Source of the DNA: a virus
Length of the DNA: 64,000 nucleotides
IMG/VR virus record: IMGVR_UViG_3300020731_000774
Location: 1-64,000 of that record
Direction: 5' to 3' (one strand)
In this document: positions 19,167 to 56,422 of the stretch, piece after piece
Numbering within the stretch: position 1 is the stretch's first letter
Layout: each line of letters starts with the position of its first letter
Notes under the pieces: generated by a model
Seen by the model: only the letters and a program-made list of their open reading frames with translations
Databases searched by the model: none
Told to the model about the DNA's origin: nothing
Position numbers and translations under genes: made by a program

Positions 19167-19502
19167 AAATTTAATTTCAATATTTTAAATGGATATTTTC
19201 GTTTCACATAAAATCCCTCCCTCTCTTTATAATGTCTAAATAGTGCATTGGTCATATCATTCGGATCAAATATATCTACTAAGTCAAAAATAGTTGCTTT
19301 ATCCTTTAAAAAATGGAGCCTTAAGGACCTCCCCACACTTTGGATAATTATCTGCTCACTCTTAAATGAATCTGCGAATATTACGTTAAATATTGCATTT
19401 ATTGACACACCTGTTGATAATGTACCGTCAATATGAGGCAACTAAAACTTTAGTTGCCCCTTCTTCTCTAATTTCTTCTCTTTTGTCTATTATTCTAGCC
19501 AT
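19163..19502 (-). CDS. uvsW: UvsW-like helicase, C-terminal subunit, interrupted by a 4-nt TGAC insertion
   Basis: ATG at 19502 gives MARIIDKREEIREEGATKVLVASY-TGA; the +1 frame continues GTLSTGVSIN...QSVGRSLR (motifs V and VI). Confidence 0.85.
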
Positions 19503-20461
19503 TAGTATTTTATTGTTTTTATTATAGAATCTAATAAAATATAATTATTTTCATTTAAATGATTTATTGAAACTTTATTATCAGTGTCTCTATATTTTCT
19601 TATTAGATGAGTGCTGAATTTATATTTTTTAACTATATCCTCCATATTTTCAAAAACTTCAACATCTCCGTTATTTTTTATTATTTCTATTTTTAATCCA
19701 TTTCGCTTTTTGCGATTTTTCATTTTTTCTAAATAATCAGGATCTTCCCATTTCTTCTTTATCTTAATACCGGCATCAATTCTTTTAGTTTCATCTTTGT
19801 TTATTTTATCCATTTTTTCTTTAAAGTTTAGTCGGTATTCTTCATTCATACTATCCCATCTATCTTGTGTTTCTTTTCTTTTCTTTTCAACATTTTCAAA
19901 ATTAGAATAATATTCGCTCATTTGTTTAGATTTCTCTATTCGTTTATCTTCGGTCCAATAACTTTTCATTTTATTACAAAAATCTATATACTCATCATCT
20001 GATATATTATCCCAAAAAATATTAGCTCTCCTTGTTTGTTCTTCTTTAGATATATTTTTCATAAACTCAGATCTACTTTTTCTCCAATTATTATATTTCT
20101 CTGTATCATTTTTTAAGTTGATCCATCCTTTTTTAGCAGCATTTGATGTTTCATAACTATTTTTATAATAATTCATCATCCAGTTTAATGGTCTTTGATA
20201 AGTTCTTATATTTATCGCTTTAAATAACCAAAGATGTACTAAACGATGACTATCATAGTCTAGTTCAATAATATTCCAATATTCGTTTTCAAACTCAGGA
20301 AAAGTAGATCTTGGTAATATGTGGTGTTTTTCAGAATATTCTACACTTTCTGATATTTTATAATTGATTAAAAAGTTAATATATTTATCTAAGTATTCTG
20401 AATTATCAACACTTTCATGTCTTTTTATTAAAGCATCTTTTAAAAAATTATAATCTCTCAT
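19502..20461 (-). CDS. Free-standing HNH homing endonuclease inserted in uvsW
   Basis: EKHHILPRS.FP...N...L....H...H followed by helical K/W-rich repeats; own TAATATATA at 20466-20474. Confidence 0.8.
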   Translation of the reverse strand: MRDYNFLKDALIKRHESVDNSEYLDKYINFLINYKISESVEYSEKHHILPRSTFPEFENEYWNIIELDYDSHRLVHLWLFKAINIRTYQRPLNWMMNYYKNSYETSNAAKKGWINLKNDTEKYNNWRKSRSEFMKNISKEEQTRRANIFWDNISDDEYIDFCNKMKSYWTEDKRIEKSKQMSEYYSNFENVEKKRKETQDRWDSMNEEYRLNFKEKMDKINKDETKRIDAGIKIKKKWEDPDYLEKMKNRKKRNGLKIEIIKNNGDVEVFENMEDIVKKYKFSTHLIRKYRDTDNKVSINHLNENNYILLDSIIKTIKY

Positions 20462-20505: not shown

Positions 20506-21948
20506 TTATTTTTTTAGTTTTTCTAAAAAATCATCATCAATATCATCATCTTTATTAATATCCTTTGCTAATTTATATTTACCATTAGATAATAATATTT
20601 GGGTATCTGATTTAACATCTATTTGGAAATTACCAAAATTTAGAATTGTATATTCAACACTTTCTTTGGTTATTTCCATTAGTTTTTTAATTTCTTCTCT
20701 TTTTTTACCACTTACTTCACCATCTATATAATAGAACTCTTTATCTGTTATTTCACTTTTCAATTTATTGAATATTTTTTGACCATTTTCAATAGTATGA
20801 AAAAGTAGTAGAGTATTATTATTACATTTATTAACTAAATTTTTGATAAATTCTAATCTTTTATCAGATTGGTGAATGTATGCTTTTTCAAAATCAAATG
20901 CTGCTTTACCATCTCCGCTTTTCCTGACCAATTTTAATCTTTCATGGAACTCTTTATCATTATGGTTAAGTAATAAAACTTTTATATCCATTGGTGTTAT
21001 AATTCCTTTCTTTTTTAATTCATCTGCACTAACTTCGGTTATTTTCGGACCAAGTACTGATTGTATTGTTAGTATTTCGCAACTATCATCAAGTGGGAAT
21101 GTTCCAGATACACCAAATCTAGAATAGGCATGTCCAAATGTATTTTCCAATATTGTTGTTATGGTCTTTGCTTTAGCACCATGTGATTCGTCAACTGCTA
21201 TTGTATGGAATTGTTGAAAGAATTTTTTAGGCCATTTTTCAAGTGATTGATAAGTACCTATATAAATATTTGGGTTATCAGCACCTGAAAACTTTCTTGG
21301 TTTATCAGACATAACTTCTTCTATTCGTATAGTATTATCTATATTTGATTTATCTTGTAAGTTATTTTCACCATAATAATATTCTAAAAAATTATCATAA
21401 AATTGTGTCACTAAGGTAATTGAGGGAACGATTACGAGAAATTTAGCATCTTTTTTAATGTTTTTTAGAGTATAAAAAGCAACTATTGATATGATCAATG
21501 ATTTACCACCAGAAGTAGCAACCTCTGCCATACAAAAGCGATTTTTTAATATTTTATATGCTGCTTCAATTTGATGATCATAAGGCATGAATGAATTCCA
21601 ACCACCTTCTTTATTTTTAACTTTATGATTTTTAAAAAAATCTTTACAGAAGTCTTGAACTTTTTCAAGTGTTACATCACGATTAATTGGAAAGTCTTCT
21701 TTATTTTCTAGAAGAAAAGGCATTTCAATTTCTTTACATCCTCTCATAGCTTCTTTCCATAGACCTAGATTTATTCTACCATTTTTGAAATGTGGAATAT
21801 TCCCATCCCATATACCAGCTTTAACTAAAGGATGATATTTCCAACCCTTTGGTTTTCTAGTAAGCCAAAGTTCCATTTGGAAATATTCAGTCCTAGTTGC
21901 CTCTGATACAACTAGTTCCTCTTTCTCTTTATCATATCTAAATTTCAT
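20506..21948 (-). CDS. uvsW: UvsW-like SF2 helicase, N-terminal subunit (motifs I-IV)
   Basis: PYDHQ, ATSGGKS, VPS..LV.Q, DESH, SGT, YYIDGEV; ends before motif V with a ~50-aa extension. Confidence 0.9.
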   Translation of the reverse strand: MKFRYDKEKEELVVSEATRTEYFQMELWLTRKPKGWKYHPLVKAGIWDGNIPHFKNGRINLGLWKEAMRGCKEIEMPFLLENKEDFPINRDVTLEKVQDFCKDFFKNHKVKNKEGGWNSFMPYDHQIEAAYKILKNRFCMAEVATSGGKSLIISIVAFYTLKNIKKDAKFLVIVPSITLVTQFYDNFLEYYYGENNLQDKSNIDNTIRIEEVMSDKPRKFSGADNPNIYIGTYQSLEKWPKKFFQQFHTIAVDESHGAKAKTITTILENTFGHAYSRFGVSGTFPLDDSCEILTIQSVLGPKITEVSADELKKKGIITPMDIKVLLLNHNDKEFHERLKLVRKSGDGKAAFDFEKAYIHQSDKRLEFIKNLVNKCNNNTLLLFHTIENGQKIFNKLKSEITDKEFYYIDGEVSGKKREEIKKLMEITKESVEYTILNFGNFQIDVKSDTQILLSNGKYKLAKDINKDDDIDDDFLEKLKK

Positions 21949-22451: not shown

Positions 22452-22483
22452 AAAAAACCACTCAATTTTGAGTGGTTTTTTTT
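22452..22483. terminator. Bidirectional intrinsic terminator
   Basis: AAAAACCACTCA-attt-TGAGTGGTTTTT. Confidence 0.8.
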
Positions 22484-28339: not shown

Positions 28340-28696
28340 ATGAAAAATAAATTAATTGATAATATCAAGTGGTTTTTCACTGAGATAATGAATATTTACT
28401 CTAATAAAGAATCTTTTTTCTCTAAAAAAAGAATTGAATCTGGAATTGGATTTATAATTGCTGAATGGGGTATGATATTCTTTTTGGTTAAAAAAATAGA
28501 TGTTTTAGATGCTTATGGATTTGGTTTATGGGCATCTATACAATTTTTTATAGCTGGTTATATTATTAAACAAATCCAAAAGGAGAAAAGTGATAATCAA
28601 AATATATCTGATATATCTACTTCTGATTCTTCAAATGAAACAACTAATCCCGAAACAACTAATACTGATGGAACATCAACAGATGTACAAAAATAA
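28340..28696 (+). CDS. Two-TM membrane protein, possible holin
   Basis: SKKR followed by two hydrophobic helices and a polar tail. Confidence 0.4.
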   Translation: MKNKLIDNIKWFFTEIMNIYSNKESFFSKKRIESGIGFIIAEWGMIFFLVKKIDVLDAYGFGLWASIQFFIAGYIIKQIQKEKSDNQNISDISTSDSSNETTNPETTNTDGTSTDVQK

Positions 28697-28728
28697 AAAA
28701 AATCCACTCAAATGAGTGGATTTTTTTT
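28697..28728. terminator. Bidirectional intrinsic terminator
   Basis: AAAAAATCCACTCA-aa-TGAGTGGATTTTTT. Confidence 0.8.
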
Positions 28729-29128
28729 ATTTACCAAATTTTCTTGTAGTTTTATAAGATTTACTCTCATTATACTTTTTTTCAATATTTACATACTTAA
28801 TAACAGCATAAACATCATTAGTTTTTAGGTCAACACCATCTACAACATAATTACCAGTCTCTGATGGTTGTTCTATTTCATAACCTTTATATGTAAGAAT
28901 ATTATTATGTAATTCAGAACCCTCTAATTTATCATGTAAATATGATAAACCATCTTTATATCCAGCTAATGGATCATCTTGCACTGAAGGTCTCTCAGTT
29001 GGTATAACTGATGGTCTCATCGGTCTAGCTGGTTTAGGTGTAATTGTTGGTGCAGGTGTTGTTGTTGGTGCAGGTTTAGATTCAGAACCATATACAAACT
29101 CTTCATATTTTTTAACTATTTTTCCCAT
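28727..29128 (-). CDS. Putative capsid-internal protein, Pro/Thr-rich
   Basis: MGKIVKKYEEF N-terminus; late motif upstream. Confidence 0.5.
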   Translation of the reverse strand: MGKIVKKYEEFVYGSESKPAPTTTPAPTITPKPARPMRPSVIPTERPSVQDDPLAGYKDGLSYLHDKLEGSELHNNILTYKGYEIEQPSETGNYVVDGVDLKTNDVYAVIKYVNIEKKYNESKSYKTTRKFGK

Positions 29129-30062: not shown

Positions 30063-31538
30063 TCATTTTTTAGAAACCTTTCCAAATCCACCAAATATAT
30101 CCTGTATAACTGATAATCTTTCTGTAATTTCTGGCATACCCAATGGTTCAATAATTGTATTGATTGGTGATAAAATAGATTTAGCAAATTGTATATCATA
30201 ATCTATTTCAGGTGCTACCTCAATAGGTAATGATCCCCTAATATAGGCAAATATATCACCATTTTTCTTATTCTTACAATAATAATACTTAATCTTTGTC
30301 CCAGACTTAATAAATTCATATCGTGTTTGTAACTCCTTATTCTGTTTCAATAAATAATTATGATATGCACTTGCTTTAACTGCAAAGTGAGCACCATTAA
30401 CAAACTTTAATGGCAATGAATTATCATCAATTACCTTAGTATCATAATTAGAACAAGATGATTGCATTGAAATATCATCAATATCAGCTAACTCAAATTC
30501 CTTTCTAAGATTCTTAACCAATTTTAATAAGTCCTTTATGTTAAAGGTATCAGAATTCTCAAATAAATATTTAACAATTGTGATAATCTTTTCCCTTGCA
30601 AATAAAGGTGTGGAAGATCTTACCAATTCAACTCCCTTTGGAAATAAATATGTTAACCTATCGTAATTTATACCATCCTCAAATGAAACATGTTGAATAT
30701 ATTTCTTTTTTGCCAAACTGATAACCGATTCTGATATACGTTCTAACTCAAAATCTTGTCTGTTCTCAACACCATATAAATCACCATAATCTACTAAACA
30801 CTTTTTAAAATATCCACCATATCTGAAATGGTCTATACCTTGGATATAATCCAATTCTTTACACCAATTCCATTTAGGTTTAACCGTTAATGCACCATTA
30901 TTTATTAAATCATTTAAACCATAATCCTTAACAAATACACCATCAATTAAAACCAAATCATATTCTAATGTTAATAACTTCTCAAATTCATCAACAGTTT
31001 TAGAAATACCTAAACAATTTGGATTATTAAAACTTGGAAGTTCATTTGATAAAATGATAAATTTCTTACCAATGGAATTTAACATATTCGTGTTGAATAT
31101 TAAATTCTTCCATTCTGAATGTCGAATTGCTGGTTCAAATGACACAAAAAGAGAATCTGTGTCCGCGTAAATACTTACATTTTCATCCTCATTAATTTTA
31201 CTAACATTTTTTATACATAAATTCTTATGTAATTCAACATCTAGATGCCATTGATTGTGCCAATAATCTTTATTAACCTTATCCATTGTTTGTGTAAGCT
31301 GCCTACCTTGTGCAGTTATACTTCCAGCAACCGCATTATTATATAATACGAAGTAGGAAGCTGCCATCGCTCCGTAAGAACCGTTCAATACTAATTTTAG
31401 TCTTTTACCCCCAATACATTGTATTGGGGGCTACAAAAGAGCGAGCTGAAGGGCATTGTAATAGTCTGCCTCCTTCTTTAGCTCGCTCGCTTGTTTTTTT
31501 AAAGACTCGATCTTTAATTTTTTTTCTTCTCTAGTCAT
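30063..31538 (-). CDS. Family B DNA polymerase, C-terminal subunit (gp43B-like), with an in-frame 39-nt stop-containing insertion in motif B
   Basis: ATG at 31538 gives MTREE...YYNALQLAL[L*PPIQCIGGKRL]KLVLNGSYG; downstream ITAQGR, YADTDS, KKKY, KGVELVRSSTP. Confidence 0.9.
31401..31493 (-). other. Tandem RNA hairpins around the internal TAG of polB (candidate recoding/bypass element)
   Basis: GAGCGAGCT...AGCTCGCTC stem upstream; TCTTTT-GTAG-CCCCCAATAC-AAT-GTATTGGGGG-T-AAAAGA downstream. Confidence 0.8.
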
Positions 31539-31543
31539 ATATA

Positions 31544-31570
31544 TTATATCAGAAATAATCAAATTAGTTT
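31544..31570 (-). promoter_or_regulatory. Putative middle-type promoter AAACWW-N16-TATAA upstream of polB
   Basis: Same bipartite motif with a 16-nt spacer before slyD, uvsW, 51791 and 52277. Confidence 0.55.
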
Positions 31571-31619
31571 TAAAGGGGGAGTATATTATTTTATATATAA
31601 TTAAAATAGTATAAACGAT

Positions 31620-32738
31620 ATGATTAAAGAATATAAGATTTTAATGAAGATAAATTATAGAAATGTATCACATTTTAGAAATTTAGGATATGAAATAGAA
31701 AATGGTGTTAAGGAAATGTATATTTCAGTTTGTGATTTGTTCCAGGGCTCAAATGTTAAGGTAACTGCGGTATGTGAAATATGTAGTTCTGAAAATATAA
31801 TAAATTATAGTAAGTATTTAGTTAATTTTAATAGGAATGGTAAAAACTATTATTCTTGTTTTAAATGTAAAAATATTGAGAAAGAGAAAACATGTATGGA
31901 AAAATATGGTGTTAAATCATATTCAATGACAGATGAATTTAGAGAAACAGAAAGTTTAAAATGGAAAGGCATTAAGAAAGGTGGTGATAAGGGTGAGAAA
32001 ACTATGTTAGAGAGATATGGTGTAAGATCTTATTTTGAAACGCAGGAAAGTAAGGACTATAATAGAAAGTGGATGTCATCTGATGAGTTTAGAAATAAAA
32101 GTAAGGATACATTGATAGAGAAATATGGAGTAGATTCATATTCAAAAACTGATGAATTTAAAAATAGAATGGCCGAACAAAATGAAGTTTCAAAGGAAAA
32201 GTCAAAATCTACATTTTTGGAGAGATATGGTGTTGAGTGGTATACTCAATGTGAGGAATATAGGAATACTTGTATTGAAAAGAAAGATGAGACTATCTTA
32301 AAAAATAAGGAAACATGTATGGAAAGATATGGAGTTGATAATGTTAGTAAAGTTCCTGAAGTACAACAATCTATGAAAAATACTAAAATAGAAAGAGGAT
32401 CTATACTACCTGATCATTTATTAAGTGAGTGGGAAATATATAAAAAGAATGTTAGACGAATAACTAATAAATTTGAAAAAGAATTATATGAAAACTGGGA
32501 TGGAATTGATCATTATGATGGTGAGAATATAAAGGGATATTTTTCACATACTCATACACATCGTTTCTATCCGACAATAGATCATAAAAATTCAGTTTAT
32601 TATGGATTTTTAAATAACATTGATCCAAGTGAAATTGGTTCTATTGAAAATTTATGTATAACTAAAAGATATATAAATTCTACCAAATCCAGGATGATAG
32701 AGAAAGAATTCTTAGAAAAGTTAAAAAACCAATCCTAA
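31620..32738 (+). CDS. Free-standing HNH homing endonuclease with a zinc finger and T(C/M)xE(R/K)YGV repeats
   Basis: CEIC/CFKC; five E(K/R)YGV repeats; C-terminal TIDHK.S...GF...IG...NL.I.....N..K. Confidence 0.75.
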   Translation: MIKEYKILMKINYRNVSHFRNLGYEIENGVKEMYISVCDLFQGSNVKVTAVCEICSSENIINYSKYLVNFNRNGKNYYSCFKCKNIEKEKTCMEKYGVKSYSMTDEFRETESLKWKGIKKGGDKGEKTMLERYGVRSYFETQESKDYNRKWMSSDEFRNKSKDTLIEKYGVDSYSKTDEFKNRMAEQNEVSKEKSKSTFLERYGVEWYTQCEEYRNTCIEKKDETILKNKETCMERYGVDNVSKVPEVQQSMKNTKIERGSILPDHLLSEWEIYKKNVRRITNKFEKELYENWDGIDHYDGENIKGYFSHTHTHRFYPTIDHKNSVYYGFLNNIDPSEIGSIENLCITKRYINSTKSRMIEKEFLEKLKNQS

Positions 32739-35327: not shown

Positions 35328-35725
35328 TGAGAAAATTTAGTAGAATAGTAGAATCAAATGATCCAAATATAGAAGAGATAAAATGGATTTTTATTGATTT
35401 AATTGATAATGGATTTAAGATTGAGATTAAACCATATTGGGAAGACGGTATGTTTTATTTATATAATAAAGAAAATCAACATTATGCTGATAAAAATAAA
35501 AATGGTTATTTAATAGTAGGTCACGCTGAGAAATTGACAGAAGCCAATCCATTTAAAGCTCTTAGAGATTTTCTAAGCATAGAAAAGAGAATGTTAGATT
35601 TAGGTTATGAATTAGATGATGATGGTAAAAGTGCTGATAATTCTCTAATAGAAATTGGTGGTAGATGGGTTAATAACTATCAATTTCGTTTCCCATTTAA
35701 AGAAATAAAAAACGACACCAAATAG
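35327..35725 (+). CDS. Paralog of 34581..35327
   Basis: MRKFSRIVES...IKWIFIDLIDNGF...KR..DLG. Confidence 0.55.
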   Translation: MRKFSRIVESNDPNIEEIKWIFIDLIDNGFKIEIKPYWEDGMFYLYNKENQHYADKNKNGYLIVGHAEKLTEANPFKALRDFLSIEKRMLDLGYELDDDGKSADNSLIEIGGRWVNNYQFRFPFKEIKNDTK

Positions 35726-35738
35726 TGTCGTTTTTTTT
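35707..35738. terminator. Bidirectional intrinsic terminator
   Basis: AAAAAACGACAC-caaata-GTGTCGTTTTTT. Confidence 0.8.
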
Positions 35739-43185: not shown

Positions 43186-43217
43186 AAAAAGGGTGCAATC
43201 AAGCACCCTTTTTTTTG
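43186..43217. terminator. Intrinsic terminator
   Basis: AAAAAGGGTGC-aatcaa-GCACCCTTTTT. Confidence 0.75.
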
Positions 43218-56389: not shown

Positions 56390-56391
56390 TA

Positions 56392-56422
56392 AAAACCCCT
56401 TAGAAAATTCTAAGGGGTTTTT
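56392..56422. terminator. Bidirectional intrinsic terminator
   Basis: AAAACCCCTTAGAA-aa-TTCTAAGGGGTTTT. Confidence 0.8.

Follow-up and report, generated by a model that had tools for sequence, protein, structure and literature searches.

The closest known system to the element described here is T4 gene 60 with its MobA (HNH) element, in which a 50-nt gap in the coding sequence is passed over by programmed translational bypass. To our knowledge, no other case of programmed bypassing over tens of nucleotides has been demonstrated experimentally in bacteria. The present analysis concerns a 64,000-nt stretch of viral DNA (positions 1 to 64,000 of IMG/VR record IMGVR_UViG_3300020731_000774, hereafter the window), in which a 39-nt insert with an in-frame stop codon and a hairpin interrupts motif B in the gene for the C-terminal half (C-half) of a family B DNA polymerase (PolB). 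The insert is interpreted, with a probability of roughly 65%, as the gap of a gene-60-like programmed translational bypass, carried in a mobile cassette and non-homologous to gene 60, and would then represent a second natural bypass family, located in the most conserved motif of an essential polymerase. The described homologues of gene 60 all lie in topoisomerase genes, and the account of them makes no mention of polymerases (Manning and Atkins, bioRxiv 10.1101/2022.08.31.505936). Literature searches for a polymerase bypass returned no paper.

Other described elements share some of these features. The byps of Magnusiomyces capitatus mitochondria, which Lang et al. reportedly described in 2014, are said to be short inserts (27-55 nt) that are rich in G+C and prone to form hairpins, although the genome itself is A+T-rich; they are flanked by matched codons and skipped in translation. 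The present inserts resemble them in being short hairpins with matched flanking codons and flexible insertion sites, but whereas byps reportedly occur in dozens of copies in many genes and lack an associated endonuclease, each genome here has a single copy, always placed in motif B of the same gene. In the 'intronless homing' of T-even phages, a free-standing homing endonuclease cuts a conserved gene next to its own, and immunity arises from point differences in the target. As in intronless homing, a free-standing nuclease gene with a patchy distribution lies near its presumed target in an essential conserved motif, beside a patch of synonymous differences, but immunity here would come from a gap that expression must skip. 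Candidate regulatory bypassing has also been proposed for Streptomyces phages on bioinformatic grounds (RNA Biol 2023, PMC10732093); the proposal hinges on the rare UUA codon, and its gene, host and signals are unrelated to those described here.

Interruption of motif B in the polymerase C-half gene

The minus-strand open reading frame (ORF) starts at ATG 31538-31536 and runs for 35 sense codons to a TAG at 31433-31431, downstream of which the same frame is open to 30063. The 441 downstream residues match the part of family B DNA polymerase that extends from motif B through the thumb (Pfam PF00136 DNA_pol_B; PHROG 262 positions 471-839). The coding blocks and the parts of the proposed gap are as follows.

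31437-31538, minus strand: first coding block of the PolB C-half, from ATG (31538-31536) to the take-off codon CTT (31439-31437), 34 codons; fingers helix preceding motif B, matching PHROG 262 from position 471.
31437-31439, minus strand: proposed take-off codon CTT (Leu34), sharing its first two bases with the landing codon CTA; a CTN/CTA pair is found in 14 distinct versions at this site.
31401-31436, minus strand: proposed untranslated gap of 36 nt (TTG, TAG, hairpin and spacer), not in 24 insert-free relatives and found in contigs of three samples.
31431-31433, minus strand: in-frame TAG, one codon past take-off.
31408-31430, minus strand: gap hairpin, a perfect stem of 11 bp on a C5:G5 base, closed by a loop of 1-3 nt; the stem covaries across versions.
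31401-31407, minus strand: A-rich 7-nt spacer TAAAAGA between hairpin and landing codon, able to pair with TCTTTT around the take-off codon (extended stem).
31398-31400, minus strand: proposed landing codon CTA, after which decoding would resume at AAA, the motif B lysine.
30063-31400, minus strand: second coding block of the PolB C-half, with motif B (KLVLNGSYG), motif C (YADTDS) and thumb, to the stop.

The minus-strand text reads GCT CTT TTG TAG, the hairpin CCCCCAATACA-A-TGTATTGGGGG, the spacer TAAAAGA, and then CTA AAA TTA GTA TTG AAC GGT TCT TAC GGA. L002 and L003, insert-free homologues with 69% amino-acid identity, share the start ATG with the window, their text being ...YYNALQLALKLVLNGSYG, and deletion of 31439-31401 from the window gives the same text, leaving exactly 39 extra bases, the length of the hop from take-off to landing. 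The hairpin arms (31408-31418 and 31420-31430, 11 nt each) are 100% complementary and 1 nt apart, and GGGGG ends 7 nt before CTA. The hairpin pattern appeared in 0/100 shuffled sequences, and the 131-nt RNA is predicted to fold at -51.4 kcal/mol, whereas shuffled versions average -26.0 (z = -7.1), with an equally stable fold in 0/200 shuffles. An earlier account of this locus (the sequence-only reading) had given the same text with its in-frame TAG, which re-reading reproduced; it had proposed that removal of 31439-31401 restores motif B, as the two insert-free homologues bear out, and its near-palindrome with an 11-bp core, its G-run 7 nt before CTA and its long upstream stem (described below) were all found again.

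The same reading had named an assembly artefact among the outcomes that would overturn it, a possibility ruled out by independent contigs of other samples that carry the insert. Contig X3, from a second sample, covers 31232-31646 with zero differences, and contig X4, from 2012, aligns without a gap over 30941-31540 and differs by 23 substitutions, just two of which fall inside 31387-31540, at the central loop base 31419 and at 31407, just past the stem. The insert is present in contigs of three samples, including this diverged 2012 strain, and no insert-less joint was found in the assembled DNA contigs of four runs, although contigs would not show minor variants. In X4 and X7, the 88 nt past the landing codon (window 31299-31386) form a dense, mostly synonymous patch between flanks that are near-identical to the window, with 16 changes in X4, three of them protein-altering. 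This patch looks like a gene-conversion tract and fits repeated repair at the landing-adjacent spot.

In the near-complete relatives (n=5), the family B polymerase is encoded in two genes, with the N-half and C-half about 100 kb apart, whether or not the insert is present. The split was seen in G001-G004 and LR745206 (loci L075-L084), with the break at the fingers tip and with helix-like K/E-rich segments closing the N-half and opening the C-half. Because insert-free relatives are split too, the gene split predates the endonuclease described below, and the distance between the halves accounts for the absence of an N-half from the 77.7-kb contig to which the window belongs. Relatives share the start ATG and the same 34 residues of the first coding block; since these are equally conserved in carriers and non-carriers, they give no indication of a nascent-peptide signal acting in the exit tunnel, as in gene-60-type bypassing.

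The downstream frame is intact in 47/47 carriers, with dN/dS of 0.09-0.13 among them, and strain variants of the second coding block are mostly synonymous, a substitution pattern indicating that this frame is under purifying selection. Near-complete carrier genomes contain one N-half and one C-half, and no second C-half, PolA or Pol III alpha was found in them. Both coding blocks must therefore end in one functional product. A selfish cassette might instead have broken the C-half gene for good, leaving replication to the host or to another gene: standard decoding assures only the 35-residue product, and the window's genome is only about 12% complete. The intact frame with its dN/dS near 0.1, the lack of another polymerase in near-complete carriers, and the recovery of the carrier strain in samples from 2012 to 2020 make such a dead gene very improbable. 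Polymerase function supplied by another gene, which the sequence-only reading had also listed as a way to be wrong, found no candidate in the near-complete relatives.

The C-half gene shows other irregularities among relatives. A larger second interruption lies near C-half residue 115 in L043, L048, L057 and L062 (about 1.6-2 kb) and in L053-L055 and L063 (about 360-470 nt); Rfam intron models gave no match to the larger inserts in this gene in six relatives. The clade L065-L074 lacks about 70 residues of the window protein between motifs B and C (residues ~145-212 of the C-half). In some relatives (L018:2272-2790, L023:2344-2775), the gene directly upstream of the C-half matches the phage 'translation initiation factor' family PHROG 9787.

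Recurrent inserts and their candidate RNA signals

A viral-contig search returned 71 loci, which together with two GenBank records gave 70 assessable relatives. Inserts of 36-48 nt are present in 46/70, all within the same 10 codons of motif B, in 32 distinct versions placed after codons 33, 34, 37, 40, 41 or 42; those at sites 37-42 interrupt KLVLNGSYG itself. The frame is shifted in 22/32 versions and kept in 10/32, with a stop in all 10 of the latter, so that no version is readable by standard decoding. Readthrough of TAG, by a suppressor tRNA or a reassigned code, would add 13 residues inside motif B. The window insert taken singly would permit it, being 39 nt long and in frame with a single TAG, but 22 versions would still be out of frame, others use TAA or TGA, and Pro-Pro and Gly-Gly would presumably enter the fingers helix. 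The standard genetic code fits the window: reading TAG as a sense codon scarcely extends its ORFs, TAG terminates 6/64 of the long ones and is therefore taken as an ordinary stop at the insert, and a search of the window found no tRNA gene. Reassignment of TAG was rejected on these grounds, and readthrough as a whole is barely credible.

Every version contains a hairpin of 9-12 bp, with stabilities of -17 to -35 kcal/mol. Across the 32 versions, stem pairs 1-5 are nearly always C-G with C on the 5' side, while pairs 6-12 covary, with four to six pair types each. The distance from take-off codon to hairpin is 5-7 nt (6 nt in 25/32), and that from hairpin to landing or resumption codon is 5-9 nt in 29/32. 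A stop lies within one codon of take-off in 25/32 versions, directly adjacent in 4/32 and one codon later in 21/32 (as in the window order CTT, TTG, TAG), with none near in 7/32. At the five sites other than site 42, take-off and landing codons share their first two bases, in codon phase, in 23/23 versions (CTN/CTA, GCT/GCA or GCT/GCT, GTT/GTA or GTT/GTT, TCT/TCA, GGT/GGT), and the landing codon is the first post-hairpin triplet to do so, again in 23/23. Where the two codons are unequal, the take-off codon mostly ends in U and the landing codon in A, so that a U34 tRNA would exchange a weak pair for a strong one. In the window, one tRNA-Leu would read both CTT and CTA.

A single occurrence of the C5...G5 pattern was found in the window's contig, and likewise in carrier G001. 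A dispersed repeat family of the Magnusiomyces byps type was rejected, the hairpin pattern being unique in the contig and the other strong hairpins of the window being of the A-run/T-run, terminator-like, intergenic kind. The C5...G5 hairpins of relatives G002 and G004 were likewise rejected as further inserts, being either terminator-like or located inside an unbroken frame.

The insertion sites and resumption codons also bear on whether two polypeptides are made, the first a 35-residue peptide ending at TAG and the second restarted past the hairpin, with the polymerase working in three pieces. Such an arrangement would extend the existing division into N and C halves, and the G-run 7 nt before CTA resembles a start signal. 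However, none of the resumption codons (CTA, GCA/GCT, GTA/GTT, GGT, TCA) is a usual start, the nearest in-frame start, TTG at 31388, loses the motif B lysine, sites 37-42 would divide KLVLNGSYG between two chains, and no Shine-Dalgarno use is seen in the phage. Separate polypeptides are thus judged improbable.

Upstream of the gap, the coding sequence can form two further helices.

31433-31494, minus strand: 5' stem-loop formed by coding sequence, its 3' arm ending on the take-off codon and the next bases.
31501-31507, minus strand: 5' strand AGTCTTT of a possible outer helix, pairing with AAAGACT at 31405-31399, including the first two bases of the landing codon.

The arms of the 5' stem-loop (31433-31451 and 31476-31494, 19 nt each) are 84% complementary. 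In the alignment, 81% of cells are paired, compared with 36-48% in slid controls, and 12 pairs are changed on both sides, among them synonymous CTG/TTG exchanges in Leu codons that are matched by CAG/CAA exchanges in Gln codons. The core pairs number 8.4/9 in carriers and 4.1/9 in insert-free genes, although the peptide is nearly the same, and local folding is about -22 to -23 kcal/mol for carriers at sites 33, 34 and 37 and -7 for insert-free genes. This covarying stem-loop ending at the take-off codon is a property of carriers at those three sites, and not of site 42. For the outer helix, 81% of cells are paired and three pairs are changed on both sides, a weaker support than that for the 5' stem-loop.

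Removal of the gap at the RNA level would also explain a joined product, either through excision of the hairpin by a nuclease and a ligase or through jumping of the RNA polymerase between short direct repeats at the hairpin base, with a continuous mRNA as the outcome. The sequence-only reading had already named RNA removal as an alternative. In many versions, the take-off and landing regions face each other at the base of the extended stem, and the versions at site 42, where flanking codons are unmatched, still need exact joining. On the other hand, known intron classes do not fit: no Rfam match was found in 31200-31700 at E up to 1, 36-48 nt is far smaller than group I or II introns, and the junctions are separated from the stem by 6 nt and 7-10 nt and do not sit in the symmetric 3-nt bulges of bulge-helix-bulge introns. 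Nor does removal from RNA predict the codon-phased flanking matches (23/23), the choice of the first match past the hairpin as landing codon, or the nearby in-frame stop (25/32). It is accordingly rated unlikely, and a little less likely again is its specific form, in which the 36-48-nt hairpins are excised from mRNA and the ends rejoined by phage or host enzymes. What leaves room for excision is the set of site-42 versions, which combine the lack of a matched landing codon and of a 5' stem-loop with long extended stems. If excision were to prove true, no spliced element known from a bacterial virus would be shorter than these hairpins, which a homing endonuclease would have spread.

The signals of the family parallel those of gene 60 in several respects. 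In both, about 35-46 codons of the downstream part of a split replication gene precede an untranslatable gap, the codons for take-off and landing agree if wobble is allowed, with a stop beside the former or close to it, and a stable hairpin opens a gap whose 3' part is A/U-rich and holds a G-rich triplet 5-9 nt before landing. The hairpin involves the take-off codon in gene 60 and does so here via the extended pairing TCTTTT/AAAAGA; and carriers have the stronger upstream stem-loop, here at sites 33, 34 and 37 only. Gene 60 also has a Shine-Dalgarno-like triplet 5-7 nt before landing that pairs with 16S rRNA, a position to which GGGGG 7 nt before CTA would correspond, although a role of the latter in such pairing is doubtful. 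By contrast, the present inserts lie in motif B of a family B polymerase in freshwater megaphages, with gaps of 36-48 nt (39 in the window) instead of 50, and at six codons, where gene 60 has one site give or take one codon. The stop, adjacent in gene 60, is here usually one codon later, and the hairpin begins 6 nt past the take-off codon on a fixed C5:G5 base. Gene 60 bypassing has been demonstrated by experiment, whereas the present family is known from sequence comparison.

The adjoining putative endonuclease gene

Beside the C-half gene, about 230 nt from the presumed target, lies the following gene.

31620-32738, plus strand: divergent, free-standing putative endonuclease gene, 372 aa; DUF7487 (Pfam), 'homing endonuclease' PHROGs 3339 and 12131.

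The protein contains five ERYGV-type repeats (DUF7487) ahead of a C-terminal HNH-type domain. The near-invariant N-terminal cysteines C52, C55, C80 and C83 form a four-Cys cluster that may be a zinc-binding element, and this cluster and the ERYGV-type repeats are probably the DNA-reading parts. Residues D321, H322, N344 and N353 are invariant in 14 homologues. Sequence searches named little, with DUF7487 as the only Pfam match and no match in NCBIfam or in a PDB sequence search. In the AlphaFold model (mean pLDDT 82.6), the best structural matches of residues 280-372 found with VIA-align are all HNH domains, with Z 7.3 to 4h9d and Z 5-6 to Cas9 HNH; Foldseek also placed HNH domains in its top rows, although with weak E-values of at least 0.07. 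Because sequence naming failed and the Foldseek E-values are weak, the HNH call rests on the middling VIA-align Z of up to 7.3 together with the invariant DH...N...N. In the model, the C-terminal domain is of HNH-type fold, and cleavage activity is predicted.

A homologue of this gene, intact or as a remnant, occurs at the same place in 19/32 distinct carriers and in 0/18 insert-free loci (Fisher p = 1.2e-5, not corrected for phylogeny), and no other endonuclease types were found in the carriers that lack the DUF7487 gene. In a tree of the polymerase body, carriers, non-carriers and insertion sites are interleaved, requiring at least 16 presence changes and 24 site changes over 52 scored tips. 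L021 and L017 share about 91% identity over several kb; what distinguishes this pair is an 858-nt block with the nuclease gene, together with the gap. In these comparisons, the cassette behaves as a mobile element. Gene 60 likewise has an adjoining HNH endonuclease gene and a patchy distribution in which some carriers have lost the endonuclease, but the nuclease gene here is divergent in orientation and belongs to DUF7487, and not to the MobA family. With another host gene, another nuclease family, a shorter gap and flexible sites, the element most likely works like gene 60 by analogy, without being a member of its family by descent.

Proposed mechanism, objections and genome context

In the proposed bypass, the gap and the 5' end of the polymerase C-half gene would form a cassette with the divergent HNH homing-endonuclease gene. 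The ribosome would translate 34 codons and pause with peptidyl-tRNA-Leu on CUU, where the C5:G5 hairpin, 6 nt past CUU and thus at about the start of the mRNA channel, and the nearby UAG would block normal decoding. Hairpins placed at the entrance of the mRNA channel are able to keep tRNA from binding in the A site, as tested at distances of 11-12 nt (eLife 2020, PMC7282821); counted from the first base of the take-off codon, the present hairpin begins at +10, near but not equal to those distances. The tRNA would then release CUU, a weak wobble pair for a U34 tRNA, and the mRNA would slide by 39 nt, possibly aided by refolding of the 5' stem-loop behind the ribosome; a role for pairing of the mRNA exiting the ribosome has been proposed (bioRxiv 10.1101/2024.12.09.627546). 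Re-pairing would occur on CUA, which matches in full by Watson-Crick pairing and is the earliest such triplet past the hairpin, and decoding would restart at the motif B lysine to give ...QLAL-KLVLNGSYG, so that the joined product would hold the junction peptide ...EADYYNALQLALK. At the DNA level, the endonuclease would cut insert-free motif B DNA of competing phages, repair would copy the cassette into the cut genome, and the gap would shield carriers by disrupting the recognition site.

Several points weigh against this bypass. Ribosomal skipping is deduced from comparative data, and the activity and target of the endonuclease are putative, with the gene missing from 13/32 carriers. The stop lies one codon past take-off, and is not adjacent to it as in gene 60, and the A-site codon UUG is not obviously rare. 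Use of CUU and CUA would need one tRNA that reads both, yet the window has no tRNA gene. A Shine-Dalgarno role for the G-run is doubtful because the phage's own genes lack such signals: upstream of the 64 long ORFs of the window, GGAG or GAGG occurs in 0/64, and GAG is depleted. The host may not use Shine-Dalgarno pairing at all; such depleted upstream regions are as expected for a host of that kind, for example one of the Bacteroidota. Finally, the site-42 versions (inserted after Tyr, n=9) have no cognate landing codon (AAC, TAA, GAC, CAA and AGC stand in its place) and no 5' stem-loop, so that one mechanism may not fit all versions.

The sequence-only reading had itself proposed a bypass with CTT as take-off and CTA as landing codon, which the recurrence of inserts in 46/70 relatives and the matched codons at five of six sites support, but it missed that the gene is the C-half of a split polymerase and that an HNH-type endonuclease gene adjoins it. 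Its caveat that the stop falls one codon after CTT is true here but describes nothing exceptional, this being the family norm (21/32). It had attributed the upstream stem to selection, in agreement with the synonymous covariation on both arms and the lack of the stem in insert-free relatives; in the covariation analysis of homologues that it had suggested, the gap hairpin and the 5' stem-loop both covary.

Were the bypass to hold, the 32 natural variants at six codons would offer recoding research a comparative data set, with clear family rules: the hairpin has a C5:G5 base and starts 6 nt past the take-off codon, the A-rich spacer behind it measures 5-9 nt, and the take-off and landing codons end in U and A, respectively. 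As the hosts are apparently without Shine-Dalgarno pairing, the family could test which of the gene 60 signals are general. It would also suggest that a homing endonuclease can combine with an expression-level fix to invade a catalytic motif, and would caution against annotating such polymerase genes as pseudogenes.

The IMG/VR virus contig that contains the window is 77.7 kb long, has 26% G+C and is rated about 12% complete. Its polymerase is closest, at 69% identity, to those of uncultured phages of 634-642 kb, and the runs listed as containing the window sequence are freshwater and lake metagenomes, with no RNA run among them; the source is a freshwater megaphage of about 640 kb. Symmetric A-run/hairpin/T-run elements lie between genes at 1913-1941, 22452-22481, 28691-28732, 35707-35736, 43186-43213 and 56391-56422, and are likely two-way terminators. 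Because the terminators of relatives use C5...G5 stems, the gap hairpin resembles the phages' own terminator stems minus the flanking runs.

The window has a second fragmented gene, for a helicase (DEAD/ResIII, PHROG 16), around 19400-19502 (minus strand), a region with the ORFs 19502-20461 and 20506-21948. The short ORF reads ...KVLVASY followed by TGA C, and the next frame reads GTLSTG...QSVGRSLR, with 4 extra bases after the Tyr codon in an S-Y-G context. The endonuclease-like 319-residue ORF at 19502-20461, between the helicase pieces, has no Pfam match and no similarity to the polymerase-linked endonuclease. The extra bases stand directly past a 9-bp hairpin at 19437-19458.

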